Source: an uncultured Acidobacteriota bacterium
Lineage (GTDB): Bacteria; Acidobacteriota; Terriglobia; Terriglobales; Acidobacteriaceae
Length of the DNA: 64,000 nt
Assembly (NCBI GenBank): GCA_963719655.1
Contig: CAVRDQ010000138.1
Location: 6,417-70,416 of the forward strand
Direction of reading: 5' to 3'
Under the pieces are notes generated by a model. That model had not been told where the DNA came from. It saw nothing but the letters and a program-made list of their open reading frames with translations, and did not search any database. Made by a program: the position numbers and the translations under genes. Below, one piece after another: positions 11,659-36,787 of this stretch. The stretch's first letter is position 1. Each line of letters begins with the position of its first letter.

Positions 11659-11685
11659 CACGCATCCTTCGATGGAACGCTCCAC

Positions 11686-11722
11686 GGGGTGCATGCGGAA
11701 GATTGCATGTGCCCCGGTTTTT
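11686..11722 (+). terminator. Rho-independent terminator after TonB receptor
   Basis: Stem ggggtgcatgc / gcatgtgcccc (two G-U pairs), loop ggaagatt, followed by ggttttt. Confidence 0.6.
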
Positions 11723-11828
11723 GTCTGCACCAACGGGCCGTGGGAACTCCGCTGCGTGATGCACAACTGCGAGTCTGGGTGGGCAGGTCACTGAAGTTGC
11801 GAAAGACTGAGATGGGAAAAACACTGAC

Positions 11829-13103
11829 ATGAAGATGCAGGCCATGATTCGCCGGTTCCATCTGCCGATGTTCGCCATTGCCGTTCTGTTGTATTCGGCC
11901 ACGCTTGTGGCACAGCCGGCCACGCAGCCGCAACGCATCATCCTGACCTTGACGGCCGACCCCGCGCACTCCATGGCGGTCACATGGCGCAGCATACAGG
12001 CCGTGCCGCAGGCCGGGGTGCAGATCGCCGTGGCCTCGCCCGCGCCCACCTTCCCGAAAGATGCGGCCACCGTGCAGGCCACTTCCACGGCCGTGGCCAA
12101 CACCGAGCTCAAGCTCTCCTACTCCGCTGTGCTCAAGGGGCTGAAGCCCGACACTCAATACCTGTACCGCGTCGGCGCCGACGGCGCATGGAGCGAGTGG
12201 AACTTCTTCCGCACCGCCCAGGAGCAGCCTGCGCCTTTCCGTTTTCTCTATCTAGGCGACGCGCAGAACAGCATTCACTCCATGTGGTCCCACACCGTCC
12301 GCGCGGCCTACGCCGCGGCCCCCGACGCGCGCTTCATGGTGCATGCCGGAGACCTGGTGGCCGAGGGCTTTGACGACAAGCTCTGGGGCGAGTGGCATGA
12401 CAGTCTTGGTTTTATCGCAGCCACCATGCCCAGCCTGCCCGTGGTCGGCAACCATGACCTGCACCTTGCGGCCTCCGGCGACGGGGACGGCAAGGTGAAA
12501 AATATCTTCGCCGCGCCCCTCTGGACGGCGAACTTCACTCTCCCTGCCAACGGTCCCGCCATCCCGGAAACTCCCGGGCAGAGCTACTACGTGGACTACC
12601 AGGGCGTACGCTTCATCGCCCTGGACGCAAACGTCTGGGCCAATGACAGCTATCGCCCTGAGCAGCGCGGACGTGTCAGTGCCGCCGAGTTGAAATGGGT
12701 GGAAGAGCTATTGAAGACGAATCCCAATCGCTGGACGATTGTTGTGCAACACCAGAGCCCATACTCCGTGGGCAAGGACCGCGACTACGACGCGATGCGT
12801 GCCGCGCTGGTGCCGCTCTTCGACAAGTATCACGTGGACCTCGTCCTGATGGGCCATGACCATTGCTACGCTCGCACCCGGCGCATCACCGCCAGCAAGC
12901 CTTCAGCAAACGGAACCATCTACGTGATCTCCGTCAGTGGCCCCAAGATGTACAAGGTCAGTGCTCGCCACGCCGAACTGATGGAAGTTGTGCGGGAGAA
13001 CACGCAGATGTACCAGGTCATTGACGTTGCCCCCAACCGCCTGAAGTTTTCTGCCTACGACGCCAGGGGCGGCAAGGTGGATGAGTTCACACTGGAAAAG
13101 TAG
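11829..13103 (+). CDS. Secreted metallophosphoesterase, purple-acid-phosphatase-like
   Basis: 424 aa with a signal peptide. Calcineurin-like motifs GDAQN, HAGDLV, VVGNHD, MGHDH, and an N-terminal PAP-like beta domain (ILTLTADPAHSMAVTWRS). Confidence 0.85.
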   Translation: MKMQAMIRRFHLPMFAIAVLLYSATLVAQPATQPQRIILTLTADPAHSMAVTWRSIQAVPQAGVQIAVASPAPTFPKDAATVQATSTAVANTELKLSYSAVLKGLKPDTQYLYRVGADGAWSEWNFFRTAQEQPAPFRFLYLGDAQNSIHSMWSHTVRAAYAAAPDARFMVHAGDLVAEGFDDKLWGEWHDSLGFIAATMPSLPVVGNHDLHLAASGDGDGKVKNIFAAPLWTANFTLPANGPAIPETPGQSYYVDYQGVRFIALDANVWANDSYRPEQRGRVSAAELKWVEELLKTNPNRWTIVVQHQSPYSVGKDRDYDAMRAALVPLFDKYHVDLVLMGHDHCYARTRRITASKPSANGTIYVISVSGPKMYKVSARHAELMEVVRENTQMYQVIDVAPNRLKFSAYDARGGKVDEFTLEK

Positions 13104-17646: not shown

Positions 17647-17907
17647 CTAGGAGTGAGTGGCGATGATATGTCCACTGAGTTTCTCAAGCGATGCCTGCGT
17701 CCGGTCCTGGCCGGTGGGTGCAGTGACCTTTGCAGCCGCTTCCAAGGCGGCGATCACTGTGTCCACTTCCAGCTCTCCGGCGATACACGCCTCGGCGAGA
17801 GGTTTACGGCCGCCACAGCAGTAGTCGATCCCGTAATGTTCAAGCACCCGGATAGAGGACGGCTATTCCAGTGCAATCTCGCGGACGGTCTTGGTTGTGG
17901 TGGTCAT
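17647..17907 (-). pseudogene. ric: Remnant of ric/scdA (repair of iron centres di-iron protein): in-frame TAG plus 3' truncation
   Basis: After RBS aaggag, the ATG at 17907 reads MTTTTKTVREIALE-TAG(17865-17863)-PSSIRVLEHYGIDYCCGGRKPLAEAC...LSGHIIATHS-stop. The ScdA_N motif GIDYCCGG is present, but the hemerythrin-like C-terminal two-thirds are absent. Confidence 0.7.
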
Positions 17908-18001: not shown

Positions 18002-18017
18002 TGTGACTTAAGTCGCT
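18002..18017. promoter_or_regulatory. CRP/FNR-family-like site TGTGA-N6-TCGCT upstream of hcp
   Basis: tgtgacttaagtcgct is centred about 72 nt before the hcp ATG. The core gtgac-ttaa-gtcgc is a near palindrome. Assigned by resemblance only. Confidence 0.25.
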
Positions 18018-18081: not shown

Positions 18082-19725
18082 ATGTTCTGCTATCAATGTG
18101 AACAGACCTCCAAGGGCGACGGATGCCGGACGCTCGGGGTTTGCGGTAAAGACGAGACCACGGCGACGCTTCAGGATCTTTTAATCCTCGCCGCCAAGGG
18201 CATTTCCATGTACGCACACCGGGCAAGGCAGCACGGTGCATCGGACCCGGAGATTGACAGCTTCACCATCCGCGCCATCTTCGCAACGCTCACGAACGTC
18301 AATTTTGATCCTGAGCGACTTGTTGAACTGATTCATCAGGCAATAGCGACGCGGGATGCAGCACGTGCCTTATACGAACAAGCCTGCGCCAAAGCTGGCG
18401 TCATTCCAGTCAAGCTGGATGGCCCAGCCGTATGGCTGCCGGCCGCCACTCTGGAAGGACTTTTGGCGCAGGGGCAGATGGAAGTTCTTCCCGCACGCTT
18501 CCTGACCGAAGGCAAGGAAATCGCCAATCTGCAGGAATTGGTGCTATATGGCGTCAAGGGTGTTGCCGCCTACGCAGTCCACGCGCTCGCACTCGGCGCC
18601 GGCGATCCGCTCTCCTACGCGAAGATTCACGAGATCCTCGACTCTCTCACCCATCCTTCGCCTGCCGCCGAAGAACTCCTGACAACCGCTCTTGCTGTGG
18701 GCGAGTTGAACTACCGGGTCATGGAAGTGCTGGACAAGGCGCACACCGAAACCTTCGGCCATCCCACGCCCGCGAAGGTCCGTCTGCAGGCACGCAAGGG
18801 CAAGGCCATTGTTGTCTCAGGACACGATCTTCACGATCTGTATGCGCTGCTCGAACAGACCAAGGATCTCGGCATCCAGGTGTATACCCACGGTGAGATG
18901 CTGCCCGCGCACGGCTATCCCAGGCTGAAGGCATTTGCGCACCTCGCCGGAAATTACGGCGGAGCGTGGATGGACCAGGCGCAGGAGTTTGCCGAATTTC
19001 CGGGCGCGATCCTGATGACATCGAATTGCATCCAGAAGCCGGAAGTCGCCTACAAGGAGCGCATCTTTACATCGGGTGCGGTGGCGTGGCCGGGAGTCAA
19101 ACACATCGCCGACCAGGATTTTGCGCCGGTAATCGCGGCGGCCCTTGCGGCGCCTGGCTACTCCGAAGACGGCTCCGGTGAGGAGATCACCGTCGGCTTC
19201 GGACACAACGCAGTGCTCGGCGTAGCCGGCAAAGTGATTGACGCCGTGAAGGCCGGCGCCATTCGCCGCTTCTTCCTCATCGGAGGATGCGACGGGGCGC
19301 GCCCCGGCAGAAGCTACTACACCGAGCTCGCCGAGTCGATTCCAAGCGACTGCCTGATCCTCACCCTGGCGTGCGGGAAGTTCCGCTTCAACAAACTCGA
19401 CTTCGGAGAGATCGGCGGACTGCCACGCCTGCTCGACATCGGCCAATGCAATGACACCTATTCCGCGCTGCAAATTGCGCTTGCCCTCGCCAAGGCTTTT
19501 GAATGCGGGGTCAACGAGTTGCCGCTTTCCCTGGTTTTATCCTGGTACGAACAAAAGGCTGTCGCTGTCCTGCTCACCCTGCTGCACCTGGGTGTCCGCA
19601 ACATTCGCATCGGACCGACATTGCCGGCATTCCTGTCGCCCGCCGTGCTCGACCTGCTCCATGAGAAGTTCAACCTGATGGCGATCAAGACTCCGGAAGA
19701 GGACCTGGCCGCGATGCTTGGCTGA
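18082..19725 (+). CDS. hcp: Hybrid cluster protein (hydroxylamine/NO reductase)
   Basis: 547 aa with the N-terminus MFCYQCEQTSKGDGCRTLGVCGKDETTATLQDLLI characteristic of Hcp. RBS aggaagg lies upstream. Confidence 0.95.
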   Translation: MFCYQCEQTSKGDGCRTLGVCGKDETTATLQDLLILAAKGISMYAHRARQHGASDPEIDSFTIRAIFATLTNVNFDPERLVELIHQAIATRDAARALYEQACAKAGVIPVKLDGPAVWLPAATLEGLLAQGQMEVLPARFLTEGKEIANLQELVLYGVKGVAAYAVHALALGAGDPLSYAKIHEILDSLTHPSPAAEELLTTALAVGELNYRVMEVLDKAHTETFGHPTPAKVRLQARKGKAIVVSGHDLHDLYALLEQTKDLGIQVYTHGEMLPAHGYPRLKAFAHLAGNYGGAWMDQAQEFAEFPGAILMTSNCIQKPEVAYKERIFTSGAVAWPGVKHIADQDFAPVIAAALAAPGYSEDGSGEEITVGFGHNAVLGVAGKVIDAVKAGAIRRFFLIGGCDGARPGRSYYTELAESIPSDCLILTLACGKFRFNKLDFGEIGGLPRLLDIGQCNDTYSALQIALALAKAFECGVNELPLSLVLSWYEQKAVAVLLTLLHLGVRNIRIGPTLPAFLSPAVLDLLHEKFNLMAIKTPEEDLAAMLG

Positions 19726-19732
19726 CATTTCC

Positions 19733-19770
19733 GCCCGGAGGGGAGTTCCCTCTCCGGGCGCGTTTTTCTA
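19733..19770 (+). terminator. Rho-independent terminator after hcp
   Basis: Imperfect hairpin gcccggagggga-gtt-ccctctccgggc followed by gcgtttttctatttt. Confidence 0.6.
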
Positions 19771-20129
19771 TTTTGTGAATGCCTCCCAGCCGCGGGTAGC
19801 ACGTAATGTGGCACAGGCCGCAGACGCAGGCCCGCAACCAACACATACCGCGCTGACCCTGGCTGCCACCCCGCCCGCAGGACTTTAATTCCCATGAAGA
19901 TGTAGCGTGAAGAAATTGCGCGAGACCTTCATTCAAATCTTAGGATTGCGCTCCAGCGTCGTCATGACGATGAGGACGATTGCGGTTTTATTGCGATCAT
20001 CAGGGCAACGCCGAAAACAAACTTCGCGCCACTGAGACTTAAGTCATAGGGCGCGCCTTCCAACTGTAGTTTCCTGATATAGTATGCCGCCACGGTGATT
20101 GTGAACCTAGCGGTAAAGGGGAACTCACA

Positions 20130-21299
20130 ATGCAGTCCCGACCCTCTCCCAAGCTACAACTGGCCCTCGGCACCGGTGCGTTTGCCTTTTGCTTTGCGGT
20201 CTTCGGCTCACTTTCGGCGATGATGCCGATCCTCAGCAGGCAGATGCATCTGTCACCTGTGCAGAAGAGCATTGCCGTGGCCGTGCCGGTTCTCCTGGGC
20301 AGCCTGGGGCGCATTCCGCTTGGCATGTTGACCGATCGCTTTGGAGGCCGCTCGGTCTTCAGCGTGGTGATGCTGCTCTCAATCATCCCGGCGTTTCTCA
20401 TGGGAACTGCGCATGATTATCGCCAACTGCTTTTGTACGGCTTCTTCATCGGGATTGCGCTGGCCAGTTTCTCCGTTGGCGTGGGTTTTGTCAGCGGCTG
20501 GTACAGCGCGGAAAAACAAGGTTCCGCCCTGGGCATCTATGGAGCCGGTAATATCGGCCAGTCACTGGCAGCCTTCGGCTCTCCCGTGATCGCCGCCGCA
20601 GCCGGAGTGCGTTGGGGCTTCTGGACATTCGGCATCCTGCTCACACTGTGGCTTGTGCTGTTCTTGCTGCTGGCGCGTAATGCCCCGCGGCGTGGGGCGA
20701 TCAAGTCCCTCCGGGAGACGGTGCGTCCGCTGAATGATTCCCGCAGCTGGGTGCTGAGCCTTTATTACTTTCTGACCTTCGGCGGCTTTGTTGCCATGGC
20801 CGTGTACCTGCCCATCTTTTTGACGGAGACGTTCAAGCTGACGCCGCAGGACGCGGGATTCAGAACGGCGGGCTTTGTCGTTCTAGCCACGCTGATGCGT
20901 CCCGTGGGCGGAACGCTGGCGGACAAAGTTGGCGGGCGAACCATCCTCAAGTGGGTCTTCCCAGCCACGGCCGTGATGTCGATCTTCCTCGCATGTCCCA
21001 TGATGGTGACCTTTACCATCGGCGCGCTTGGAATGGCGACGATGATCGGGCTGGGCAACGGAGCCGTCTTCAAGCTGGTGCCGGAGTATTTTCCAAACTC
21101 CGTGGGCAGTGTGACGGGGTTGGTGGGCGCCGCGGGAGGACTGGGCGGCTTCTTCCCGCCGCTGTTGCTCGGAGTCATCAAGCAGCAGACCGGAGGCTTC
21201 ACACTGGGATTTGCGCTGCTCGGAGTCTTTTCCCTCTTCTGCCTTGCCGTTCTTCTCTGGCGGCCATTGCGTCCTACCGTGGCGGAGGTTCTTTCCTAG
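20130..21299 (+). CDS. narK: MFS nitrate/nitrite porter (NNP family)
   Basis: 389 aa, polytopic. NNP signature-like motifs [11 protein letters not shown] and [15 protein letters not shown]. Confidence 0.85.
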
Positions 21300-21306
21300 G
21301 TGACGA

Positions 21307-22395
21307 ATGCGACAGCCTGAGTATCCAGTACGAGGTTCCGACACCGTGCACGCTTTTGTATGGGGATGCATCGTCGCACTCTCGCTCATCTCCGGAATCT
21401 TCATCGGCAGCCGGGGGCTGAAGGATTTTGATCCGGCGCTGGTTTCCTATGCTGGAGCGACCGTCTTCGCCGCCTTCGGGCTTGGCTACCGCTATGCCAT
21501 GTGGCTGCGCCGTCCGCCCACGCGGTTGTACTGGTATCGCGGCTGGCAGCTCTTTCTAGCCCCCAGCAAGTTGCCCAAGAACATCGCGCATCTGGCCGTG
21601 ATTCTTTGGAACAACATCTTTCTCCAGCGCTTCATCGGACGCCGCTCGCGCATTCGCTGGACCGCGCACTGGTTCCTCGCCTGGGGATGCCTGCTGGCCG
21701 CGGCCGTCACCTTCCCGCTTTCGTTCGGCTGGGTACGCTTTGAGACGGCGCCCGACAACCAGAACGTCTATCGCGCATTCATGTTTGGCATTCCCATGGG
21801 CAGCTTCCCGCTGAACAGCCTGATGGCCGAGCTTACCTTCAACATTCTGGACATTGCCGCTGTGATGGTGTTGACTGGCGTCTTCTTTGCCCTGTGGCGC
21901 CGTGGCCGCGACCATGATGCGCGTACCGTGCAGCAGTTTTCCAATGACCTGTTGCCGCTCATCATGTTGTTCGCTATTTCCATAACCGGGTTATTTCTGA
22001 CGGCATCCACGCATCTGATGCATGGCCTGCACTATGTCTTTCTCTCGCAACTGCACGCCATTACCGTTATCTTCACGCTGCTGTATCTACCCTTTGGCAA
22101 GTTCTTCCACATCTTTCAGCGTCCGGCGCAGCTTGGGGTGGACTTTTACAAGAAGGCCGGGGCCGAGGGCGAGCAGGCAATTTGCGCACGCTGTGGCCAG
22201 GCATATGCCTCCCTTCTGCAGATCAACGATCTGAAAGCCGTGCAGGCTGCGGTGGGAATCCAGTTTCAGTTGGCGGATGGAACTCATTACCAGGAAGTCT
22301 GCCCGGCGTGCCGCCGCAAGAATCTTGCGCTGACGCAGGACGGGCTTTGGAAGTCTCTCGGCATGGATGTGCGCGGGATGGGAAAGGAAATTTAA
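21307..22395 (+). CDS. Polytopic membrane protein, NarI/HdrE/DsrM-like cytochrome b candidate with C-terminal CxxC...CxxC tail
   Basis: 362 aa with about 7 TM helices. His residues lie in the helices, and the last helix [15 protein letters not shown] resembles the conserved NarI/DsrM C-terminal helix. Cytoplasmic tail is CARCGQ...CPACRRK. The family assignment is not verified. Confidence 0.6.
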
Positions 22396-22397
22396 AC

Positions 22398-24617
22398 GTG
22401 GCAAAGCTCCCAACAGATATTCCATCCATCGTGAAGCAGTACGGGCCGACCTTGCACACGGTTCCTCCTGGCGGCTGGGCCCACACCGGCGAAGACGAAA
22501 AGCTGGTGAAGACCCATTGCTGCTTCTGCGGCCAGCAGTGTGGAATCCAACTGCGCGTGCGCGAGAACAAGATTGTTGGATTTGAGCCGTGGGAGGAATT
22601 TCCTTTTAATCGCGGCAAACTCTGCCCGAAGGGCGTCAAGCGCTACATGCAGGATGAGCATCCCGACCGGCTGAAGAGCCCGTTGCAGCGCGTGGAGGGC
22701 AAAGGTTTTGCTCCAATCGGCTGGGACGCGGCCATGGAGCGAGTCGCCGGCGAGATTCGCCGCATTCAAGAGAAATATGGCAATGACGCGTTCGCAGTCC
22801 TCACCGGCGCTTCATTGACCAACGAGAAGGCTTACCTGATGGGTAAGTTTGCGCGGGTTGCGTTGAAGACCGCCAATATTGACTACAACGGCCGCCTCTG
22901 TATGGTCTCCGCTGGTGCAGCGTCCAAGAAAGTCTTCGGAATTGATCGCAGCGCGAATCCGTGGAGCGACATAACCAAGGCGCAGGTCATTCTGGCCGCC
23001 GGGGCAAACATCGCTGAATGTGCGCCAATCACCACCGACTACCTGTGGCAGGCCCGCGAAAAAGGCGCCAAGCTCATCATCCTCGACCCGCGCATGACGC
23101 CCATTGCGCGCAACGCCGATCTGTTCATCCCGGTGCGCTCCGGCGGAGATATCGGCGTCTTCAACGGAATGCTGCATGTGATGATCGAGCGCGGCTGGAT
23201 TGACCGTGAGTTCATCGCCCAGCACACCACCGGTTTTGAGGCCGTGATGGAGACGGTGAAGAAGTACACGCCGGAGTATTCGGCAAAGATCGCGGGAGTT
23301 CCGGCGGAAATGATCGTCAAAGCCGCTGAACTTTGGGGGCCCGCGCCGACCAGCTTTCTGATGCATGCGCGCGGCATTGAGCATCACTCAAAAGGGGTGG
23401 ATAACTGCATCGCCGCCATCAATCTGGTCATTGCCAGTGGACGTATCGGTCGCGAAGGTTGCGGCTACGCCATGATCACAGGTCAGGGCAACGGGCAGGG
23501 CGCTCGCGAGCAGGGCCAGAAGTGTGACCAACTTCCCGGCAGCCGCGATATCAGCAACTCTGAGCATCGCAAGTACATCGCCGGCGTCTGGGGTGTGCCG
23601 GAGGAATCCATTCCGCAGAAAGGCCTGTCGGCGGTTCCGCTGGTCGAGGCGATTCATGAGGGCAAGATTAAGGGGCTGCTATCCATCTGTTTCAACCCTT
23701 CGGTCTCCCTGCCCGATGGCAACTATGTGCGCGAGGCGCTGGAGAAGCTGGAGTTCTACGTCAACATTGATTTCTTCCTCTCCGAGACTGCACGCTACGC
23801 AGATATCGTGCTTGCCGGCTCTCTGATGGAAGAGGACGAGGGAACGACCACCAACGTCGAAGGCCGCGTCATTCGCCACCGCCAAGCGGTCAAGCCGCCA
23901 GATGGGGCGCGCGAAGACTGGGCGATCATGAATGAAATTGCCACACGCCTCGGCCATGGAGACAAGTTCACCAAAGGACCACCCGATCTGTTTGAGGAAA
24001 TTCGCGTAGCCTCGAAGGGCGGAGTCTCCGACTACTCCGGCATGACGTGGGAGGGCATTGACCAGAGCAACGGAATCTTCTGGCCTTGCCCTGAGCCGGG
24101 CCATCCCGGGACTCCGCGACTGTATGAGGGGGGCAAGTTCGGCCATCCCGACGGCAAGGCTCACTTTATTCCCATTGAGTGGCGGCCTTCGGCAGAGATG
24201 CCCGACGAGGAATATCCGATCATCCTCACCACGGGCCGCGTCGTCTCGCATTTTCTCTCCGGGACGCAGACGCGACGCATTGGCGGACTGATGGATCAGT
24301 ATCCGCAGCCCCGTTGTGAGATGCATCCCCGGCTGGCGGAAAAGCTCGGCATTGCGGACAACGATTTTGTGAAGGTGGAGAGCCGTCGCGGGGAAATTGT
24401 CGTACGCGCACAGGTGGTCAAGACCATCCGGCCGGACACCGTGTTTGTGCCCTATCACTGGCCGCTGGGCCGCTCGGCCAACAACCTGACGGTGCGGGCC
24501 ATTGACCCGGTATCGAACATCCCGGAATTCAAGATCTGCGCCGTGAGGGTTAGCAAGACCGACGCGCCGACCGACGCAATCGCGCAGTTGGAGATGGGAG
24601 CGGGAGGCATCCGATGA
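22398..24617 (+). CDS. Molybdopterin oxidoreductase, Nas/NarB/Nap-type nitrate reductase catalytic subunit (no Tat leader)
   Basis: GTG 22398 sits 2 nt after the upstream stop with ggaaaggaaa as RBS; the track ORF from 22182 overlaps the previous gene. [4Fe-4S] motif [10 protein letters not shown]...KLCPKG, and [17 protein letters not shown] (Cys Mo-ligand context). Confidence 0.88.
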
Positions 24618-25237
24618 GCGAACGGGCATTCTTCATCGACCACTCGCGCTGCATCGGCTGCCAGTCCTGCGTGCAGGCCTGCGGCGAGTGCGACACGCAT
24701 CGCGGCGTCAGCATGATTCATCTGGAGACGATTCAACGCTCCGACAGCGTGCAGACCGCGCCACAGGTGTGCATGCACTGCGAGGATCCGATCTGCGCCC
24801 GCGTATGCCCGGCCGACGCCATCAAGAAAACTCCCGATGGCGTGGTGCAAAGTTCGCTAAAGCCGCGCTGCATCGGCTGTTCCAACTGCGTGCTCTCCTG
24901 CCCGTTTGGCGTGCCAAAGTACCGGGCGGAAATTGATCAGATGATGAAGTGCGACATGTGCTACGACCGCAGCAGCATCGGCAAGAAACCAATGTGCGCC
25001 ACAGTCTGTCCATCCGGAGCACTGACCTTTGCGACCATGGAGGAGATTCAACGTACCCGCAGTGGAATCCCCATTAACTCCTGGCGTTTTGGCAATGAGC
25101 TGGTAACGACCAAGGTGTATGTCATGGTTCCCCGAGAGGTGGAGCAGGTGGATGTGGAACTGGTGCAGATTACCTCCACTCCGGCCGCCCTCCCCGATGA
25201 TCCCTACGATATTGCGTTGATGCTGGAGGACGCATAG
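24614..25237 (+). CDS. 4x[4Fe-4S] ferredoxin-type electron-transfer subunit (DmsB/NrfC-like)
   Basis: 207 aa with four Cys cluster motifs: [44 protein letters not shown]...CATVCP. Its ATG overlaps the upstream stop (ATGA). Confidence 0.9.
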
Positions 25238-25752
25238 TGACAGACGAAAAGAAAGAGTGTGCCTGCTGCAACCAGGCTCCGAAGTGGAAGCGCGATTTCC
25301 CCATCGAGTGGGAGGGCGACCATTACGTCACCCGCCGGGAGATCGTGAAGTTCATGACGCTCGGCTCCGTGCTGCTGGCTGTTGCCAGTTGGGTCACAGC
25401 CATCGCCGGAAGGTTTCTGCGCCGGGGCAGCCGGGCGGAGCGAGAAATTGGCATCGTCACCACGCTGGAGAAAACCGGATCGCTCCTCTTCCGCTATCCG
25501 ACGGACCAGGATCCATGCATTGCGGTGCGAACTCCAGAGGGCAAGCTGGTGGCATACTCCCAGGTTTGCACCCACCTCTCCTGCGCCGTGGTTTACAGCA
25601 AGGCAGAAAACAAGCTGCTGTGTCCATGCCATAAGGGCGAATTCAACATCAACATGGGCACTCCTGTAGCGGGACCGCCGACACGGCCACTGCCGCGCAT
25701 CAAACTCGAACAGCGTGGCGACCGGCTCTTTGCCACGGGATTGGAGGCGTGA
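25237..25752 (+). CDS. Membrane-anchored Rieske [2Fe-2S] protein
   Basis: 171 aa with a GTG start overlapping the upstream TAG. TRREIVKF plus a TM helix forms a Tat-like signal anchor. Rieske boxes CTHLSCAV and CPCHKGEF. Confidence 0.88.
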   Translation: MTDEKKECACCNQAPKWKRDFPIEWEGDHYVTRREIVKFMTLGSVLLAVASWVTAIAGRFLRRGSRAEREIGIVTTLEKTGSLLFRYPTDQDPCIAVRTPEGKLVAYSQVCTHLSCAVVYSKAENKLLCPCHKGEFNINMGTPVAGPPTRPLPRIKLEQRGDRLFATGLEA

Positions 25753-25979
25753 TGAGCGTACGCACCCAGGGGACGACGCTGTTTACAGCAATTCTTATCC
25801 TGGTCGGCACAACCGTAGTGGTGCAGCTGTGGCTGCTTACCGTGGCCATGGAAGCCCTGCTAGGTGGTGAGGCAAAGACGCTGGTACCCGCGGCGCTGGG
25901 CTCAACATTGCTGCTGGCGATAAACGCTTGCCTGCTGCGGTACGTCTTTCGTTTTGATCGCGACGTGGAGCGAGAATGA
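25749..25979 (+). CDS. Small two-TM membrane protein, translationally coupled to the Rieske gene
   Basis: 76 aa. GTG 25749 or ATG 25752 overlaps the Rieske TGA. Two hydrophobic helices (LFTAILILVGTTVVVQLWLL, LVPAALGSTLLLAINACLL). No family recognised. Confidence 0.5.
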   Translation: MMSVRTQGTTLFTAILILVGTTVVVQLWLLTVAMEALLGGEAKTLVPAALGSTLLLAINACLLRYVFRFDRDVERE

Positions 25980-25980
25980 T

Positions 25981-26148
25981 ATGAACCGTCACCATCCTGC
26001 GGTGGTCGATCTGGTGATGAAGTCGGATGAAAAGAAAGAAGGGCAGGTAGATCAGCAGACGACCGAAGAACCGCGGCGGATGCTGTTCAAGGCGGATGCC
26101 AATCCCGCGCCATTGGCGCCCCAACCAACGCCCCAGTACCCATTGTGA
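25981..26148 (+). CDS. Possible small hydrophilic protein (55 aa)
   Basis: ATG 25981 lies 1 nt after the upstream stop, with ggag about 11 nt upstream. Third-codon positions look G/C-rich. No motif recognised. Confidence 0.3.
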   Translation: MNRHHPAVVDLVMKSDEKKEGQVDQQTTEEPRRMLFKADANPAPLAPQPTPQYPL

Positions 26149-26191: not shown

Positions 26192-26268
<77 letters not shown>

Positions 26269-26444: not shown

Positions 26445-27689
26445 CTACGCGCCAAAGTGCCCCAGCCCGACGCCGATCAGGTACGTCACCACGCCCTCGA
26501 TGGCGCCCACGGCCGTCATCTCAAAGCCGCTTGCCCACCAGGAGCGCACGGTAATCAGGCTCTTGGCTGCGCCCACCGCAAAGTGTGCCGCCAGGCTGAT
26601 GATGGCCGAGGCGATCACCGCCGGGTAGCCGCCCCAAAAGAAGAATGGAATGATCGGCACGAAGGCGCCCACGGCCGTGCTCAGCGCGCCGCTGAAGGCC
26701 GAGGTCATGGGATTGCTCAATGCCTCTTCGGTGGAGTTCAGCCGTTCGGAGGCCAGTGCGCGCAGCATCTGCTCCGGGTCCTTGGCAAGGTGCTCCACCA
26801 CGCGGTCGGAATCTTCTTCGGGCAGTCCCTTCACCTGGTAGTACAGCGAGAGCAACTCTCGCGCCTCAATGTTGTTCGTCTGGATGGCGTCGCGTTCGCG
26901 GGCCAGCTCGGCCTCGTAGATTTCGCGTTCACTCTTTGCCGCCAAGTAGGCTCCGCTGCCCATGCTGAGCGCGCTGGCCACCATGCCTGCGATGCCCGCC
27001 AGCAGCACGTAATGCGAGTTGCCCAACGTAGCGCCGCTGACGCCGCTGACGATGCCGAAGATCGCGCCCAGGCCGTCGTTCACGCCGTAGATGGCGTCGC
27101 CAATCCACCCCGCGGCCTGTTTGCCGGCGTTGCGCCGCTTGGAGAGCAGTTCGTCAATCACCGAGCGCGGATCGCTCTTCGTCTCCGCCACCGCCGACTT
27201 GGGATAGTGGTTGCGGATCAGCTCGCCCAGTTCGCGATAGTGTTCCTGCTCGTCGGCGATCACCTGTTGCAGGATGGCCACGCTCGGCTCGTCGCCCAGC
27301 TCTTCAATCTGGCGGCCGTACTTGGCAATGTCGCGGCTCTCGTCAATCTCCAGCCGCCGCAGAGCCATGCCGGGCCCGCCCACTCGATTCGCCAGGGTGT
27401 CGGCCTCGCCGCCAGCCTTGCCTTCGTATTGAGGAATGTTGCCGCCCAGCTCGTGGATGCGTTTGGCCCACAGCGCGGCGTGGCGAGCCTCGGCCTGCGC
27501 CATGTGGTTCAGCGTGTGCTTTCGTATGGGGTCGTGGTCGCGCTCGGCCAGGGTCTTGTAGGTGTGGAAGCCGCGCATCTCGGTCTGCCAGTTTTGTGAG
27601 AGCGCATCGAGGATTTTTCGCGTTACCGCCGGATTATCAGAGCCTTGTGCCATGCGGCCATCATAATCGTGATGCGCCGCATGCGGCAA
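26445..27689 (-). CDS. mbfA: Erythrin (ferritin-like) domain fused to VIT1/CCC1 iron-transporter domain (MbfA-like)
   Basis: 414 aa, with an alternative ATG at 27653. Di-iron ExxH motifs AQAEARHAALW and ADEQEHYRELG, then the VIT1 region GDAIYGVNDGLGAIFGIVSG and C-terminal TM helices. Confidence 0.82.
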   Translation of the reverse strand: MPHAAHHDYDGRMAQGSDNPAVTRKILDALSQNWQTEMRGFHTYKTLAERDHDPIRKHTLNHMAQAEARHAALWAKRIHELGGNIPQYEGKAGGEADTLANRVGGPGMALRRLEIDESRDIAKYGRQIEELGDEPSVAILQQVIADEQEHYRELGELIRNHYPKSAVAETKSDPRSVIDELLSKRRNAGKQAAGWIGDAIYGVNDGLGAIFGIVSGVSGATLGNSHYVLLAGIAGMVASALSMGSGAYLAAKSEREIYEAELARERDAIQTNNIEARELLSLYYQVKGLPEEDSDRVVEHLAKDPEQMLRALASERLNSTEEALSNPMTSAFSGALSTAVGAFVPIIPFFFWGGYPAVIASAIISLAAHFAVGAAKSLITVRSWWASGFEMTAVGAIEGVVTYLIGVGLGHFGA

Positions 27690-27695
27690 TTCCGT

Positions 27696-28652
27696 CTAGA
27701 AGTCCCTGCGCAGATCCATCCCCTTGTAGAGCGAGGCCACAAAGTCTCCGTAGCCGTTGAACATCAGCGTCTCGCGACGGAAGAGCTCGCCGATGCGACG
27801 TTCGCGCGCCTGGCTCCAGCGCGGATGGTCCACCTTAGGATTCACGTTGGAGTAAAAGCCGTACTCGCTCGGATTCGCTTCGTTCCAGCTCGTTGGCGGC
27901 ATCTTCGCGGTCAGCGTAATGCGCACAATGGATTTCGCGCTCTTGAAGCCATACTTCCACGGAACCACCACGCGCACCGGCGCGCCGTTCTGGTTGGGCA
28001 GCACCTCGCCGTAGAGTCCCACGGTCAGCAGCGTCAGCGGATTCATCGCCTCATCCAGCCGCAGTCCTTCCTTGTACGGCCAGTTCAATACGTCGCGCTG
28101 CTGCCCGGGTAATTCCCTGGGGCGCGACACGCTGGTAAAGGCCACATAGCGCGCCTGCCCGTTGGGTTGCGCGCGGTCCAGCAACGTCTTCAGCGGGAAG
28201 CCCGTCCAGGGGATGACCATGGACCAGCCCTCCACGCAGCGGTGCCGATAGACGCGTTCTTCCAGTGGCGCCAGCTTCAGCAGCGCATCGTAGTCCAGCT
28301 TCAGCGGATGCCCGACCAGCCCGTCAATCTCCAGCGTCCACGGCAGCGGATGAAAACTCGATGCGATGCGCGAGGGCATCTCCTTGTCCGTGCTCAGCTC
28401 GTAGAAGTTGTTGTAGGTGGTCACGTCCTGGTACGGCGTCAGCTTCTCTCCGGTGGTGCTGATGGGGCTGCGCTCGGCGGAGAGGCGAGTGCCGGCCTCA
28501 ACCGTCAGAGGATGGAGCAACTCGCTCACCTTCTCCGCGCCCAGGGCGGCCGCGCCGATTCCGGCCGCTGCGGCCAGAAAGCGCCGCCGGCTCAGGTACA
28601 GCTCGCGCGGGGTGATCTCACTGGATTTTGGTTGCTCAATTCGGTTCTTCAC
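27696..28652 (-). CDS. msrP: Protein-methionine-sulfoxide reductase catalytic subunit MsrP (YedY), Tat-exported molybdoenzyme
   Basis: 318 aa with Tat leader [37 protein letters not shown] is characteristic of YedY/MsrP. Confidence 0.9.
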
Positions 28653-33911: not shown

Positions 33912-35384
33912 CTAGCCGATGCTCTCCGCCGACTTCCGCAGCCGTTCCAGGAAGTCCTGCAGTTCCTTCGGCAGTGGAGCCTCAAAGTCCATCGCCTTGC
34001 CCGTCGTGGGATGCACAAAGTGCAGCCGCGCCGCGTGCAGGAAGTTGCGCTGCAGGTTCAGGGCGGCCGCTCCGGCGCCATGGCTCTTGGTGCGGCGAAC
34101 CTGGGTGCGGACGCTGATGGCGTTGCCCTGCTGCTCGCGGGAGAGCGTCCGGGGCAGCAGATACTCCGGCGCGCCGTACAGCGTGTCGCCCACCACGGGA
34201 TGCCCGATCGAACTCATGTGCACGCGAATCTGGTGCGTGCGTCCGCTCTCGATCTTCACCTCGACCAGCGCAAAGCGCCCGTAGGGGGTCAGCAACTTCT
34301 CCAGCACCTTGTAATGCGACAACGCGTTGCGCGGATCAATGCCGGTCACGCTCATGCGGGTGCGGTTCTTCGGATCGCGTCCAATGGGATCGTCAATGCT
34401 GCCCGTGTCGGACTGCGGCCAGTTGTGCACCAGCGCCAGATAGGTCTTGCTCACCTGACGGCTGCTGAACTGCTCGGCCAGCTTCTGATGGGCGCGGTCG
34501 TTCTTGGCTACCACCAGCAATCCGCTGGTGTCCTTGTCCAACCGGTGCACAATGCCGGGACGCAGATCGCCGCCCACTCCGCTCAAATCTCGAAAGCGGT
34601 AGAGCAGGGCGTTGACCAGGGTGCCGCGGTTGCGTTCGTCCTCGGGACTTCCCGCTCCGGCGTGTACCACCATTCCGGCCGGCTTGTTCACCACGGCCAG
34701 GTTGCGGTCCTCAAACACCACGTCCAGCGGAATATTCTCCGGGATGGCCTTCAAGGCCGGGGCTTCCACCTTGCCCGTCACTTCGATAACCTCGCTGCCC
34801 TTCAGCCTCAGCGATGCCTTCGCCGGCCGCTCATTCACCAGCACCTTGCCCTGCTCAATCAGCTGCTGCACGCGTACGCGGCTCACCTCTTGCAGCCGCG
34901 CCACCAGGAAGTGATCGAGGCGCAGCCCGGCGTCTTCTTCGCCGGCGTCAAAGCTCCGCAGCTCGGCACCCGGCAACTCAGGGGTCAGCAACTCTGGGGT
35001 CAGCAGCTTTGGGGTCATCAATTCCGGGGTCAGCAATTCTCGACCCGGCAACTCCGGCACTTCGACGATAGGAAGAATCGGCTCGGCGATGACCTTGGCC
35101 TTCTCTGTTGGCTTCGCCTTCGCCTTGGCCTTAACGACTGGCTTGGCTTTGACGACTGGCTTGGCCTTGACGACTGGCTTGGCCTTGACCTTGGCTATTG
35201 GCTTGGCTGTTGCCTTGGCCTTCGCCGCCGGCTTCGCCTTGGTCTTGCTCTTGGCTTCCGGCTTCGCTTTGGCTTTTGCTGTTGGCTTCGCCTTGGCCTT
35301 GGACTTCGCTGTTTGCTTCGTCTCCGGTTTGGCTTTGGTTGCCTTGCGCTGGGCTTTCGGGCGGGATGTGGATTTACTGGGCAT
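33912..35384 (-). CDS. rluD: RluA/RluD-family 23S rRNA pseudouridine synthase with long Lys/Ala/Pro-rich repeat N-terminal extension
   Basis: ATG at 35384 (track start is TTG 35390). C-terminal S4 domain plus catalytic core (...GIVHRLDKDTSGLLVVAKN..., ...GRTHQIRVH...). The N-terminal ~150 aa are KAKP/KPVV and LLTPE repeats. Confidence 0.85.
   Translation of the reverse strand: MPSKSTSRPKAQRKATKAKPETKQTAKSKAKAKPTAKAKAKPEAKSKTKAKPAAKAKATAKPIAKVKAKPVVKAKPVVKAKPVVKAKAKAKPTEKAKVIAEPILPIVEVPELPGRELLTPELMTPKLLTPELLTPELPGAELRSFDAGEEDAGLRLDHFLVARLQEVSRVRVQQLIEQGKVLVNERPAKASLRLKGSEVIEVTGKVEAPALKAIPENIPLDVVFEDRNLAVVNKPAGMVVHAGAGSPEDERNRGTLVNALLYRFRDLSGVGGDLRPGIVHRLDKDTSGLLVVAKNDRAHQKLAEQFSSRQVSKTYLALVHNWPQSDTGSIDDPIGRDPKNRTRMSVTGIDPRNALSHYKVLEKLLTPYGRFALVEVKIESGRTHQIRVHMSSIGHPVVGDTLYGAPEYLLPRTLSREQQGNAISVRTQVRRTKSHGAGAAALNLQRNFLHAARLHFVHPTTGKAMDFEAPLPKELQDFLERLRKSAESIG
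34981..35040. repeat. 15-bp tandem repeat x4 within rluD-like gene
   Basis: Units ggggtcagcaactct / ggggtcagcagcttt / ggggtcatcaattcc / ggggtcagcaattct encode (E/K)L(L/M)TP units on the minus strand. Confidence 0.9.
35130..35183. repeat. 18-bp tandem repeat x3 within rluD-like gene
   Basis: (c/t)tt(a/g)acgactggcttggc occurs three times and encodes KAKPVV units on the minus strand. Confidence 0.9.
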
Positions 35385-35491
35385 TCTCAACAGGATAGCA
35401 GTTGCCAGCGCGAAAAGCTGTGACCCCCGGCTTCCCGCCCATTCAAGCTCCTGCCCACCCCTGCCGATAGGGCAGCCTGGTGCAGCTTGCG

Positions 35492-35920
35492 ATGAACGCC
35501 CTCAGACTCAGTATCGCGCAATCCTCGGCCACCCTTGACGCGGCCTCCGACGCACGTTCGACGGCCCTCACCCTGGTGCGCCGAAACCTGCTCGCCACGC
35601 GAGCTGCCAGCGGGACTAACTCCAGCTCCGCCAACAGCCTGGCCAACTCCACCACCTACCTCAGCCGCCCCGTGGATAGTTATAACTGGAGCGTCGCCGT
35701 CGCCACCTACGGCGCGCAGGGCGCCTACGCGGCCAACCTTGTGGATGGCACATATCAGGCTTCGCAGAGCAATGAGGGAGAGAGCTTCTCAGGAGAATTC
35801 GCCGCGCTCGTTGCCTACGCCCCCAGCGCCAGCGCGGAGACCGGCGCCGCCGCGCAGTATGGCTTCTACGCCGGCCTCTCCGCCAACGCCACCGCACACG
35901 CCGTGGATATATATGCCTAG
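35492..35920 (+). CDS. Hypothetical Ala/Ser-rich protein
   Basis: ATG 35492 lies within a track ORF that starts at GTG 35480. About 142 aa with G/C-rich third positions. No signal peptide and no recognised motif. Confidence 0.35.
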   Translation: MNALRLSIAQSSATLDAASDARSTALTLVRRNLLATRAASGTNSSSANSLANSTTYLSRPVDSYNWSVAVATYGAQGAYAANLVDGTYQASQSNEGESFSGEFAALVAYAPSASAETGAAAQYGFYAGLSANATAHAVDIYA

Positions 35921-35974
35921 TTTCTGATTCTTGAACTGCTTAACAAGACCGCGCGCCGAGAGGCTACTCTGAGG

Positions 35975-36787
35975 CTAGTCGCCCCGGCTGGTCTTGCCCA
36001 CGGCAGCCGAGTGCAGCGGTACCCTTCGCAGGTAGATGATGAAGCCGGTGACCACCAGTCCAATCGCAATCAACTGCGTGCCGGTGATCAGCCCACCCAG
36101 TACCTCACCGCGTCCGGGATCGCCGCGGAAGAACTCGAAGACAAAGCGCTCGCAGCCGTAGACGATCATGAACAGCGCCATCACCTGGCCTTCGAAGCGC
36201 TTGTGTTTGCACAGCCAGTAGAGCCAGACAAAGTTGATGAGCTCGGCAAAAAACTCGTATAGCTGCGTCGGGTGCAGCGGGATATTCAGCGGCGTCCCCT
36301 GGTAGAGGTTGGCCCAGGAGTTGTGGAAGGTGATCCCCCAGGGCAGGTGCGTGGGGCGGCCATAGCAGCATCCCGCGGCCAGGCAGCCAAGGCGGCCGAA
36401 GGCATGGCCAAGGGCCACACCGGGGGCGAAGACGTCGGCGGCGGAGAGAAAGGAAATCTTCTGCGTGCGCAGGTACCACCAGCCCGCGACAAGAGCCGCC
36501 ACCAGTCCTCCGGAGAAGACTCCGCCGGATTGCAGGGTGGCCAGGCTGAAGATGCGCCCGGGCTCGGCCGCGTACTCGCGCCAGTCCACCAGCAGCATGA
36601 GCACCTTGGCGCCCACGATGCCGCTGAAGGCGACCAGCCCGCCGAGGCTCCACATCTGGTCGGGGTCCAGGCCGCGGAAGCGCGCCAGGCGGAAGATGAC
36701 GGCAAGGCCTACGAGCATGCCCAGCGCGGCCATCAGGCCGTAGGTGGGCAGGGAAACGGATCCGAAGTGGAAGAAGTGTGGGTACAC
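35975..36787 (-). CDS. lgt: Prolipoprotein diacylglyceryl transferase
   Basis: 270 aa with a GTG start. ...LPTYGLMAALGMLVG..., ...GHAFGRLGCLAAGCCYGRPT..LPWGITF are typical Lgt motifs. Confidence 0.92.
   Translation of the reverse strand: MYPHFFHFGSVSLPTYGLMAALGMLVGLAVIFRLARFRGLDPDQMWSLGGLVAFSGIVGAKVLMLLVDWREYAAEPGRIFSLATLQSGGVFSGGLVAALVAGWWYLRTQKISFLSAADVFAPGVALGHAFGRLGCLAAGCCYGRPTHLPWGITFHNSWANLYQGTPLNIPLHPTQLYEFFAELINFVWLYWLCKHKRFEGQVMALFMIVYGCERFVFEFFRGDPGRGEVLGGLITGTQLIAIGLVVTGFIIYLRRVPLHSAAVGKTSRGD

Follow-up and report, generated by a model that had tools for sequence, protein, structure and literature searches.

A Nas-type molybdoenzyme encoded with a NarI-like cytochrome b, a four-cluster iron–sulfur protein and a Rieske protein: a candidate quinol-linked nitrate reductase in Acidobacteriota and other phyla

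We analysed a stretch of 64,000 nucleotides (the window) from contig CAVRDQ010000138.1 of an uncultured bacterium of the Acidobacteriaceae (Acidobacteriota, Terriglobales; assembly GCA_963719655.1) and identified on its plus strand, at 20130–25979, six translationally coupled open reading frames. They encode a NarK-family transporter, a membrane subunit, a catalytic molybdenum (Mo) subunit, an iron–sulfur (FeS) protein, a Rieske protein and a small protein of the Pfam family DUF6755 (Table 1). The narK stop codon TAG (21297–21299) is followed by an ATG at 21307, and the stop codon of the membrane-subunit gene, TAA (22393–22395), by the GTG start of the Mo-subunit gene at 22398, which is preceded by the Shine-Dalgarno-like stretch GGGAAAGGAAA. 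The Mo and FeS genes meet in an ATGA overlap (24614–24617), the FeS and Rieske genes in a TAG/GTG overlap (TAGTG, 25235–25239) and the Rieske and DUF6755 genes in GTGATG (25749–25754). A sequence-only reading made before any database search had proposed the six frames and all of these junctions, and each is present where that reading placed it. Pfam and NCBIfam profile searches agree with the identities it assigned to the NarK, Mo, FeS and Rieske proteins, the GRLCMVSAG motif that it noted is present in the Mo subunit, and neither the Mo nor the FeS protein has a twin-arginine leader. The reading had let the module run to 26148, which we correct: the operon ends at 25979, and the open reading frame at 25954–26148, which abuts a tRNA-Pro(CGG) gene on the minus strand (26192–26268), is not conserved.

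Table 1. Genes and regulatory elements of the operon and of the neighbouring hcp locus (window coordinates).
Feature	Coordinates	Strand	Details
CRP/HcpR-like palindrome GTGACTTAAGTCGC	18003..18016	.	77 nt upstream of hcp ATG
hcp (hybrid-cluster protein / hydroxylamine reductase)	18082..19725	+	NCBIfam NF003658, 775 bits
Second palindrome copy GAGACTTAAGTCAT, candidate operon operator	20034..20047	.	94 nt upstream of narK ATG
NarK-family (NNP) nitrate/nitrite transporter of the major facilitator superfamily (MFS)	20130..21299	+	389 aa; TIGR00886 E 8e-65, MFS_1
Membrane subunit, NarI/DsrM/EtfD-like putative dihaem cytochrome b core with Cys4 tail	21307..22395	+	362 aa; six transmembrane helices
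Catalytic subunit, Nas-type, with predicted Mo-bis(pyranopterin guanine dinucleotide) cofactor (Mo-bisPGD)	22398..24617	+	739 aa; Molybdop_Fe4S4 + Molybdopterin + Molydop_binding
Four-cluster [4Fe-4S] protein (FCP), DmsB/NrfC/FdnH class	24614..25237	+	207 aa; Fer4_11 2e-20, DmsB 2e-29
Rieske [2Fe-2S] protein, one transmembrane helix	25237..25752	+	171 aa; PF00355
Small subunit, Pfam DUF6755, two transmembrane helices	25749..25979	+	76 aa; PF20540 3e-19

The Mo subunit contains an N-terminal Cys4 motif for a [4Fe-4S] cluster and a Mo-ligand cysteine, Cys168. Among profile hidden Markov models (HMMs), NasC (NF047855) gave the highest score over the full length of the protein (801.8 bits), followed by Fdh-alpha (TIGR01591, 632 bits), haloarchaeal NasA (396 bits), NapA (299 bits), AioA (165 bits) and NarG (TIGR01580, 68 bits). 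The scores fall below the family cut-offs of NasC (1100), Fdh-alpha (666), NapA (904) and narG (1084), and by these comparisons the Mo subunit is a sister clade of NasC and not an orthologue. Its nearest relatives outside the module are enzymes of classical nas-nirB operons, with about 42–48% identity. The best matches by sequence among solved structures are formate dehydrogenases (FDHs), led by FdhF of the hydrogen-dependent CO2 reductase (HDCR, 518 bits); these rank first because the structure set compared contains no Nas or NarB structure. When the Mo subunit was aligned with the five best FDH/ForC structures, the latter showed Cys/Sec-His or Cys-Gln at the Mo ligand and then Arg-Gly-Gln/His, whereas the Mo subunit has Cys168-Met (GRLCMVSAG) and Thr-Gly-Gln (ITGQGNGQG). 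Matching motifs (HCMASA and LTGQ...ARE) are found in Escherichia coli NapA, to which the Mo subunit is 27% identical by BLASTP, and the Cys-Met and Thr-Gly-Gln motifs also occur in the enzymes of a Paenibacillus nas operon (nirB, then the nitrate reductase) and of a Skermanella nas operon (narK-Mo-nirB-Rieske/NirD-GS). Within the module family, Cys-Met is conserved in 69 of 70 Mo subunits and Thr/Val-Gly-Gln likewise in 69 of 70 (Thr in 53, Val in 16), the Gly-Gln being invariant. The assignment to the NarB/NasA/NapA kind made from the sequence thus stands, on the NasC profile and on the motifs common to NapA and the nas-operon enzymes, and the aligned residues show a predicted active site of the nitrate reductase type and not of the formate dehydrogenase type. 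The protein begins MAKLPTD... and carries a family-specific conserved N-terminal extension of about 35 residues (MAKxP...YGPTLH..PPGGW) with no twin arginine.

The membrane subunit matched QmoC (3e-7), TmcC (5e-6) and TcuB (4e-4) in NCBIfam, all far below the family cut-offs, and Nitrate_red_gam (PF02665) with an E-value of 1.4e-3 and 18.8 bits against a gathering score of 22.9. A profile built from 38 diverse members retrieved E. coli NarI as the best sequence in the PDB (E 1.6e-3) and aligned the 'LHA...' segment of the membrane subunit with NarI 'RLH...FPFSRLIHIWSVP', so that H250 and H268 fall on the histidines of NarI 'RLH' and 'LIH'. These are the haem histidines of NarI transmembrane helix 5, H187 and H205 in E. 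coli numbering; NarI has five transmembrane helices and four haem-ligand histidines, H56, H66, H187 and H205. The AlphaFold2 (AF2) model of the membrane subunit has a pLDDT of 87.7 and a pTM of 0.80. A Foldseek search with this model gave no match with an E-value below 1e-3 and returned mostly noise from G-protein-coupled receptors; the only meaningful matches were EtfD (9ojn, probability 1.0) and NarI (probability 0.91, TMt 0.44), with E-values above 0.05. From the profile alignment and the model, we consider the predicted homology to the NarI family weak but specific, which agrees with the sequence-only description of this protein as NarI-like.

Seven residues of the membrane subunit, H121, H250, H268, C293, C296, C332 and C335, are invariant in 81 of 81 sequences, and the four cysteines form a C-terminal motif, CxRCG...CPxCRR. 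H121 resembles H56 of NarI, and an equivalent of H66 is absent (A131 in 79 of 81). Position 179 is His in 54 sequences and Asn or Asp in 26; position 236 is His in all 26 sequences with Asn/Asp179 and in none of the 54 with His179. These two positions lie at the outer ends of neighbouring helices; so clean a swap is what would be expected if a histidine were obligatory there as second ligand of a distal haem, and this exchange between clades argues that a His is required at the outer haem site.

The orientation of the membrane subunit can be read from gene fusions. In a stop-to-stop frame test, 30 of 82 loci encoded a single polypeptide in which the membrane subunit continues in frame from the C-terminus of NarK (loci L040, L042–L044, L047–L049, L051, L058, L059, L061, L063–L065, L071, L072, L076, L078–L080, L083, L084 and eight metagenome loci), with P0122 as an example of a full-length fusion protein. 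Such fusions occur in Vicinamibacteria, Bryobacterales, Thermoanaerobaculia, Obscuribacterales and others, and they probably explain why the annotation pipeline PGAP names the unfused membrane subunit 'MFS transporter'. The C-terminus of NarK is cytoplasmic in the NarK/NarU structures, and the N-terminus of a membrane subunit fused to it is therefore cytoplasmic as well; given six helices, indicated by the AF2 model and the charge distribution, the Cys4 tail returns to the same side. Both termini of the membrane subunit, including the Cys4 tail, are thus shown to be cytoplasmic. The protein had been described from the sequence as having about seven transmembrane helices and a CxxC...CxxC tail; the tail is there, and the helix count is revised to six transmembrane helices plus cytoplasmic amphipathic helices. 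From this topology it follows that H121 and H268 would be the histidines towards the inner side of the membrane, with H179, H236 and H250 towards the outer side, and in the model this is the NarI arrangement plus one extra N-terminal helix. Apparent fusions of the membrane protein to the Mo subunit (P0214, P0218) were rejected as topology evidence, with frameshift-like junk at their junctions and no such fusion in 150 loci.

The FeS protein has four cluster motifs, all Cys groups of which are conserved in 67 sequences, and no signal peptide. Its best HMM matches are DmsB, FdnH, HybA, NrfC and DsrO, mostly periplasmic FCPs, and it scored 33.6 bits with the narH model against a cut-off of 524. 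The DUF6755 protein (69.4 bits, gathering score 27) consists of two helices, its gene follows the Rieske gene in 76 loci, and the family alignment contains no conserved redox ligands.

The Rieske protein carries the boxes CTHLSC and CPCH, and the pattern CxHxxC/CxCH with both disulfide cysteines is invariant in 64 of 64 sequences. The segment before its helix is also conserved, PxW(R/K)xDFP(I/V)xWxxDxYVxRR(E/D/Q)ΦxKF(L/M)xL; within it, the RR, K and F of RRxΦxKF are invariant in the same 64 sequences across phyla and by eye resemble the consensus of the twin-arginine translocation (Tat) pathway. The TAT_signal HMM (TIGR01409) did not match the Rieske protein, but it also misses the genuine AioB signal (8.1 bits) and haloarchaeal NarB, while it finds the MsrP protein encoded in the window. 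Foldseek with the AF2 model matched AioB (1g8j_B, E 2.5e-8, TMt 0.73), PetC3 (TMt 0.89) and Rieske proteins of Chlorobaculum, Kuenenia and b6f complexes; the top 17 structural matches are all P-side proteins, and the first soluble dioxygenase-type Rieske ferredoxin is found at rank 18. The protein shares 36% identity with the Rieske protein encoded in the Rieske-cytochrome b-narGH cluster of Haloferax mediterranei (pNar), and the NirD HMM was not among its matches. Across the 64 sequences, the two flanks of the helix contain equal numbers of Lys and Arg, and net charge is +2.9 on the C-terminal and +0.2 on the N-terminal side, so the positive-inside rule gives an ambiguous answer. Terriglobales-type Rieske proteins have an extra CxxC just before W(R/K)xDFP (CACC in the window, within residues 1–18, 25237–25290); in the other clades this CxxC is absent and the N-terminal extensions are longer and different.

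Homologues of the membrane protein number more than 6000 at 90% clustering and form 1112 clusters at 50% identity (E <= 1e-3), and no member carries a precomputed Pfam domain. A scan of one genome per species with a profile from 10 membrane-protein sequences found the protein encoded in at least 596 species genomes of about eight phyla. About 160 loci were fetched, and gene content was judged only where the contig reaches far enough. The best 80 loci cover all classes of Acidobacteriota together with Chloroflexota, Planctomycetota, Armatimonadota, Myxococcota, Gemmatimonadota, Dormibacterota and Obscuribacterales, and include the cultured hosts Edaphobacter aggregans DSM 19364 and Herpetosiphon sp. 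NSE202 (Chloroflexota). A Granulicella metagenome-assembled genome (MAG; L016) encodes the module, and megaplasmids of cultured Deinococcus (Deinococcota) carry it with a nitrate/nitrite transporter, D. wulumuqiensis NEB 479 (pDrdI) and D. psychrotolerans being among the cultured hosts; in RefSeq the Deinococcus proteins have generic names only, the cytochrome-like subunit being called 'MFS transporter' and the DUF6755 orthologue being named DUF6755 by PGAP.

By tblastn with the six window proteins, the order membrane protein-Mo-FeS-Rieske-DUF6755 is kept in nearly every locus of sufficient length. Over all loci, the membrane and Mo genes were found together 150 times, Mo and FeS 110, FeS and Rieske 100 and Rieske and DUF6755 76 times. 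In the most divergent branch, from a metagenome scan, the membrane protein is 34–38% identical to that of the window, and the membrane, Mo, FeS and Rieske genes are still together. A gene order that recurs in about 160 independent loci is far beyond chance, and the expected association of the cytochrome-b-like and Rieske genes with the Mo subunit is thereby seen across phyla, down to 34% membrane-protein identity. Two Chthonomonadaceae loci, L030 (1–3865) and L033 (117–3419), contain narK, the membrane gene and the Mo gene only; FeS, Rieske and DUF6755 genes are missing downstream (the gene that follows in L033 is on the opposite strand). In L032 and L163 the FeS-Rieske(-DUF6755) block is shifted as a unit to the other side. 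This variant and the relocated block together divide the operon into two sub-modules, (NarK)-membrane-Mo and FeS-Rieske-DUF6755.

Two further irregularities were seen in the fetched loci. In L032 a radical-SAM/SPASM gene (11005–12177) is inserted between the membrane- and Mo-subunit genes; related genes lie near the module in six loci (cluster c13), and the product may be a maturation factor. In L175 (10032–12252) the Mo gene of an otherwise intact module is called as two overlapping pieces (432 and 324 aa), which suggests a frameshift or an assembly error.

In the window, the operon is preceded by hcp, and a terminator-like stem-loop with a 12-bp GC-rich stem (19732–19760) lies 3' of that gene; so strong a terminator makes hcp a separate transcription unit. 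The core GACTTAAGTC of the palindrome upstream of both units occurs exactly twice in the window, at 18005–18014 and 20036–20045. Upstream of the operon in 22 related Terriglobales loci we found a GTGAC-N4-GTCA(C/T) box, against 0.024 expected per 350 nt. The published HcpR consensus is CRP-like, wTGTGAnnnnnnTCACAw (PMC1274295), and both the window palindromes and the Terriglobales boxes fit it. Judging by these sites, the nitrosative-stress gene hcp and the operon appear to be co-regulated by a CRP/FNR-type (HcpR-like) factor. A tblastn search found no Crp/Fnr gene in the window, so the cognate regulator is expected to be encoded elsewhere. An FNR box (TTGAT-N4-ATCAA) upstream of narK was considered and dropped, since its 18 matches were not above the 12.4 expected by chance, and a sigma-70 promoter scan of this region returned nothing useful.

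Recurrent neighbours of the module in other genomes are a Crp/Fnr regulator, RIC (ScdA_N plus hemerythrin), NnrS, hemerythrin, hcp, a NapH-like FeS membrane protein and a radical-SAM/SPASM protein, and a SLAC1-family anion channel is found near the module only in loci that lack narK. With E. coli queries, homologues of NirB, NirD, NirC and CysG were found within 10 kb in none of 81 genome loci (no NirA-specific query was run). NrfA lies near the module in three of these 81 and canonical NarGH adjoins it in one, and genes for NrfA/NapC-like or multihaem cytochromes follow the module in further loci. Homologues of NapB, NapD, NapF and NapG were found in no locus, and no chaperone of the NapD/TorD/NarJ type is encoded nearby. 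In one Terriglobales MAG (L176, 1–8991), a Mo enzyme-NirB-NirD-HEM4/GAF/ANTAR cluster lies directly upstream of ClC-narK-membrane-Mo-FeS-Rieske-DUF6755; with a classical nas cluster beside it, the module must be a second, different nitrate reductase there. Taken together, this context speaks for an anaerobic regulon of nitrate, nitrite and NO more than for nitrogen assimilation.

Other features of the window are recorded here for completeness. Divergent from hcp, on the minus strand (17653–17895), is a ric/ytfE (ScdA_N) remnant with about 80 recognisable N-terminal residues, an in-frame stop at 17863–17865 and no hemerythrin domain, probably a pseudogene; intact RIC genes accompany the module in at least 14 other loci. 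Downstream of the operon, also on the minus strand (26445–28652), are genes for a rubrerythrin-VIT1 fusion (414 aa) and for MsrP, which has a Tat signal (TIGR01409, 18.3 bits) and no evident MsrQ-like partner adjoining. Cumulative GC skew has a minimum near 36 kb (~34000–38000) and rises steadily after it; a replication origin or terminus may lie there, or gene orientation may simply switch.

The subunit set, the cofactor motifs, the nitrate-type active site and the conservation of the module frame our working model. We favour, at a probability of roughly 55%, a membrane-bound menaquinol:nitrate oxidoreductase that works like NarGHI, with a Nas-type catalytic subunit and a cytoplasmic active site. 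NarK, or a SLAC1-type channel in loci without narK, would bring nitrate in and let nitrite out. Menaquinol, which we infer to be the electron donor, would give up its electrons on the outer side of the six-helix cytochrome b, and these electrons would cross the membrane from a distal haem (H250 with H179 or H236) to a proximal haem (H121 with H268). They would leave through the cytoplasmic Cys4 knuckle domain, which may be rubredoxin- or zinc-ribbon-like, and use the four clusters of the FeS protein as a [4Fe-4S] relay into the Mo subunit, reaching first its own [4Fe-4S] cluster and then Mo-bisPGD (Cys168). Nitrate would be reduced to nitrite in the cytoplasm, completing a redox loop like that of NarGHI. 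The most likely physiological role is dissimilatory, either hypoxic respiration or redox balancing.

In this scheme the Rieske and DUF6755 proteins would form an accessory membrane module. The Rieske [2Fe-2S] domain would most likely sit at the outer face beside the distal haem and have a Qo-like part in quinol oxidation, and its conserved N-terminal peptide may tether the FeS protein at the inner face; such tethering would account for the joint inheritance of FeS, Rieske and DUF6755. The Chthonomonadaceae loci suggest that the cytochrome can feed the Mo subunit directly and that the location of the Mo subunit is independent of any Rieske signal. A topology puzzle had been raised at the outset, a Rieske domain predicted outside beside catalytic and FeS subunits without export signals. 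The puzzle is real, and one part of it now has a probable answer: the Mo subunit is placed in the cytoplasm by the NarK fusions, by the lack of a Tat motif on the Mo and FeS proteins and by the Rieske-less loci, whose Mo subunits have the same N-terminus. The Rieske domain, for its part, looks periplasmic.

Several points weigh against the menaquinol:nitrate oxidoreductase. The NarI homology is weak by the Pfam, PDB-profile and Foldseek scores alike, and we infer haem binding from the aligned histidines and the model. The likeness of the Rieske domain is to AioB, a protein that takes its Mo partner along through Tat, the best HMM matches of the FeS protein are mostly periplasmic, and gain, loss and relocation affect FeS, Rieske and DUF6755 together; a periplasmic sub-complex would fit all of this equally well. 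A Rieske cluster outside with everything else inside leaves its electron acceptor unexplained. The module also occurs in aerobic Deinococcus, and two metagenome loci (L162, L154) have a NirB or CysG homologue in their flank, so that assimilatory use is possible in some hosts.

One rival is an assembly on the other side of the membrane. Here the Rieske, FeS and Mo proteins would fold into a complex first and then be exported through the twin arginine of the Rieske protein, by the Tat hitch-hiking that AioB provides for AioA, and nitrate would be reduced outside. The Rieske protein would then take quinol electrons at a Qo-like site and the b haems would work in a Q-cycle, making the complex an analogue of pNar. 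The invariant RRxΦxKF and disulfide cysteines, the structural likeness to AioB and other P-side proteins, the identity to the Rieske domain of H. mediterranei NarB, the translational coupling of the Mo, FeS and Rieske genes and the affinities of the FeS protein to DmsB, FdnH, HybA, NrfC and DsrO are all consistent with it. However, fusing NarK to the cytochrome, or replacing a missing narK by SLAC1, would be pointless if nitrate were reduced outside, and the Chthonomonadaceae Mo subunits, which have neither a Rieske nor an FeS partner, are equally signal-less. With such an assembly there would also be nothing to pair with the invariant Cys4 tail or with the conserved surface that the membrane subunit presents to the cytoplasm, no NapD/TorD/NarJ-type chaperone is found nearby, and the enzymes closest to the Mo subunit are Nas proteins of the cytoplasm. 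We therefore regard export of the complex as unlikely.

A membrane-anchored Nas fed by the quinol pool, instead of by NAD(P)H or ferredoxin, and supplying nitrite for ammonium assimilation is a reading we also hold to be unlikely. It would suit the Nas-type catalytic subunit, the mostly aerobic heterotrophic hosts, Deinococcus among them, and the flanks of L162 and L154, and comparative genomics has filed such genes as nasA (PMC5900883). Set against this are the 81 genome loci in which no NirB, NirD, NirC or CysG homologue stands beside the module, the NO-stress and anaerobic-regulator genes that do, the operator common to hcp and the operon, and the complete nasA-nirBD-ANTAR cluster that L176 has besides the module.

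In an all-cytoplasmic chain, the Rieske helix would run N-out/C-in and its domain would be a mediator between haem b/Cys4 and FeS/Mo, a tethered counterpart to the NasG of Paracoccus. The problem of a stranded periplasmic electron would disappear, the inheritance of FeS, Rieske and DUF6755 as a unit would make sense, and the higher net charge of the C-terminal helix flank would agree with it, although the Lys and Arg counts are equal. But the invariant RR...K immediately before the helix would lie outside, the boxes are of the disulfide-containing, respiratory CxHxxC/CxCH type and not the CxH...CxxH of soluble Rieske ferredoxins, and every one of the top 17 structural matches is a P-side protein, which together make this arrangement quite improbable. 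That the enzyme is a formate dehydrogenase or a reductase of another oxyanion (chlorate, selenate, arsenate or tetrathionate), as the FDH matches among solved structures and an Fdh-alpha score just under its cut-off might suggest, is very improbable indeed, since the catalytic His and Arg of FDHs give way to Met and Thr, the residues of NapA and Nas, the operon is tightly linked to NarK/NNP transporters and nitrite/NO-stress genes, and FDHs top the structure list for want of a Nas-type structure in it.

Returning to the menaquinol:nitrate oxidoreductase, the position proposed for the Rieske cluster allows a bolder extension, to which we assign little credence: the Rieske cluster and the distal haem b might form a genuine two-branch, Qo-type site on a NarI-type scaffold. 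One electron would pass inward through the haems to cytoplasmic nitrate reduction, and the other would leave by way of the periplasmic Rieske domain for an acceptor outside, for instance NrfA, a multihaem cytochrome or a copper protein; instead of such an exit, the Rieske domain might accept electrons from an outside donor. In both cases the result would be a new class of Rieske/cytochrome b complex, unrelated to bc1/b6f cytochrome b, that connects two nitrogen-oxide reductions across the membrane.

Soil metagenomic surveys routinely enter genes of this module under 'assimilatory nitrate reductase (nasA/narB)'. If their function is dissimilatory, such counts partly misassign a respiratory function, and if the enzyme is quinol-linked and serves energy conservation or redox balancing, nitrate would have a so far overlooked route to nitrite in many Acidobacteriota, Chloroflexota, Planctomycetota, Gemmatimonadota, Deinococcota and other bacteria. 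Several of the module-bearing phyla are among the most abundant in soil, and estimates of which soil organisms produce nitrite, and hence NO and N2O, would change accordingly if the model is true. In Granulicella mallensis and strain KBS 96, nitrite is formed from nitrate although they have only 'nasA' and neither Nar nor Nap (PMC5900883); the module is a candidate explanation for this activity. Because cultured hosts exist, the module is directly testable by experiment.

Compared with known systems, the module most resembles NarGHI in its working parts. Common to both are a NarK-linked Mo enzyme facing the cytoplasm, a four-cluster FeS relay and a predicted NarI-fold haem-b anchor, whose last helix in the module has two histidines 18 residues apart that align with the haem histidines of NarI helix 5. 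The module differs in having a Cys-ligated, Nas-type Mo subunit of 739 aa instead of the 1247-aa NarG and an FeS protein of 207 aa instead of the 512-aa NarH; its anchor has an extra N-terminal helix, the Cys4 tail and a distal haem ligand in another helix; NarJ is absent, and two subunits, Rieske and DUF6755, are added. The layout typical of complex iron–sulfur molybdoenzymes (CISM), a Mo-bisPGD subunit, a four-cluster protein and an anchor encoded together, is found in the module across phyla.

For the Mo subunit itself, NasC/NasA/NarB is the closest family. The DYNGRxCM and TGQGNGQG motifs are identical in nas-nirB enzymes, and the combination of Molybdop_Fe4S4, Molybdopterin and Molydop_binding, the N-terminal Cys4 motif and the lack of a Tat leader are common to both. 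Unlike Nas enzymes, the module protein scores below the NasC cut-off, has the N-terminal extension of about 35 residues and has membrane and FeS/Rieske proteins as partners where Nas enzymes have NAD(P)H modules, ferredoxin or flavodoxin. Nap is further removed: E. coli NapA has the leader MKLSRRSFMK, whereas the module Mo subunit has no RR, and NapB, NapD, NapF and NapG are missing. FDHs of the FdhF/Fdh-alpha type are set apart by CH, UH or CQ with RGQ/RGH in the FDH/ForC structures, against CM with TGQ in the module.

The haloarchaeal pNar likewise combines a nitrate reductase locus with a Rieske protein and a b-type cytochrome, and its Rieske domain is the 36%-identical homologue described above. 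However, pNar comprises NarG/NarH (with the Rieske protein NarB) and a cytochrome b of the bc-complex type (NarC), whereas the module pairs a NarI-like cytochrome with a Nas-type Mo subunit that has no signal, and has NarK fused to the anchor in part of the loci. The NarG of pNar has a Tat signal and an active site outside. AioBA offers the nearest structural parallel for the Rieske protein, AioB being its best structural match, a Rieske protein whose twin-arginine signal serves both itself and its Mo-bisPGD partner. AioA contains a [3Fe-4S] cluster, is not known to have a protein ligand to Mo or to be accompanied by an FCP, a membrane cytochrome or a transporter, and works in the oxidative direction.

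The best matches of the membrane subunit, DsrM/HdrE/QmoC/TmcC/TcuB and mycobacterial EtfD, connect the quinone pool with cytoplasmic FeS modules as the module anchor is proposed to do, but in none of them is there a tail of the Cys4 knuckle kind, a fusion to NarK, or a partner that is a Mo enzyme or a Rieske protein. The Rieske protein shares the CxHxxC...CxCH boxes and both disulfide cysteines with Rieske proteins of the bc1/b6f/Aio type; in contrast to the soluble Rieske ferredoxins of the NasG/NirD type (~110 aa, CxH...CxxH, no transmembrane helix), it has a transmembrane helix and CxHxxC/CxCH boxes. Rieske and cytochrome b genes also lie inside the Nap locus of Caldithrix abyssi, where they have been proposed to oxidise quinol (PMC5317091). 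That organism has a periplasmic NapA with NapGH and NapM, a bc1-type cytochrome b and a genome in which no nitrate transporter was found (PMC5317091); the likeness to the module is the presence of Rieske and cytochrome b genes within a nitrate reductase locus.

No account of the architecture was found in the literature searched as full text (a biochemical characterisation of it would have spoken against the sequence-only reading), nor in that literature any paper that mentions DUF6755. We know of no earlier case in which a cytochrome b of the NarI fold is paired with a Rieske protein, and the module would be the first. The operon probably encodes a nitrate reductase complex of previously undescribed composition, which, if the proposed model is true, would represent a fourth way to wire a nitrate reductase besides Nar, Nap and Nas.

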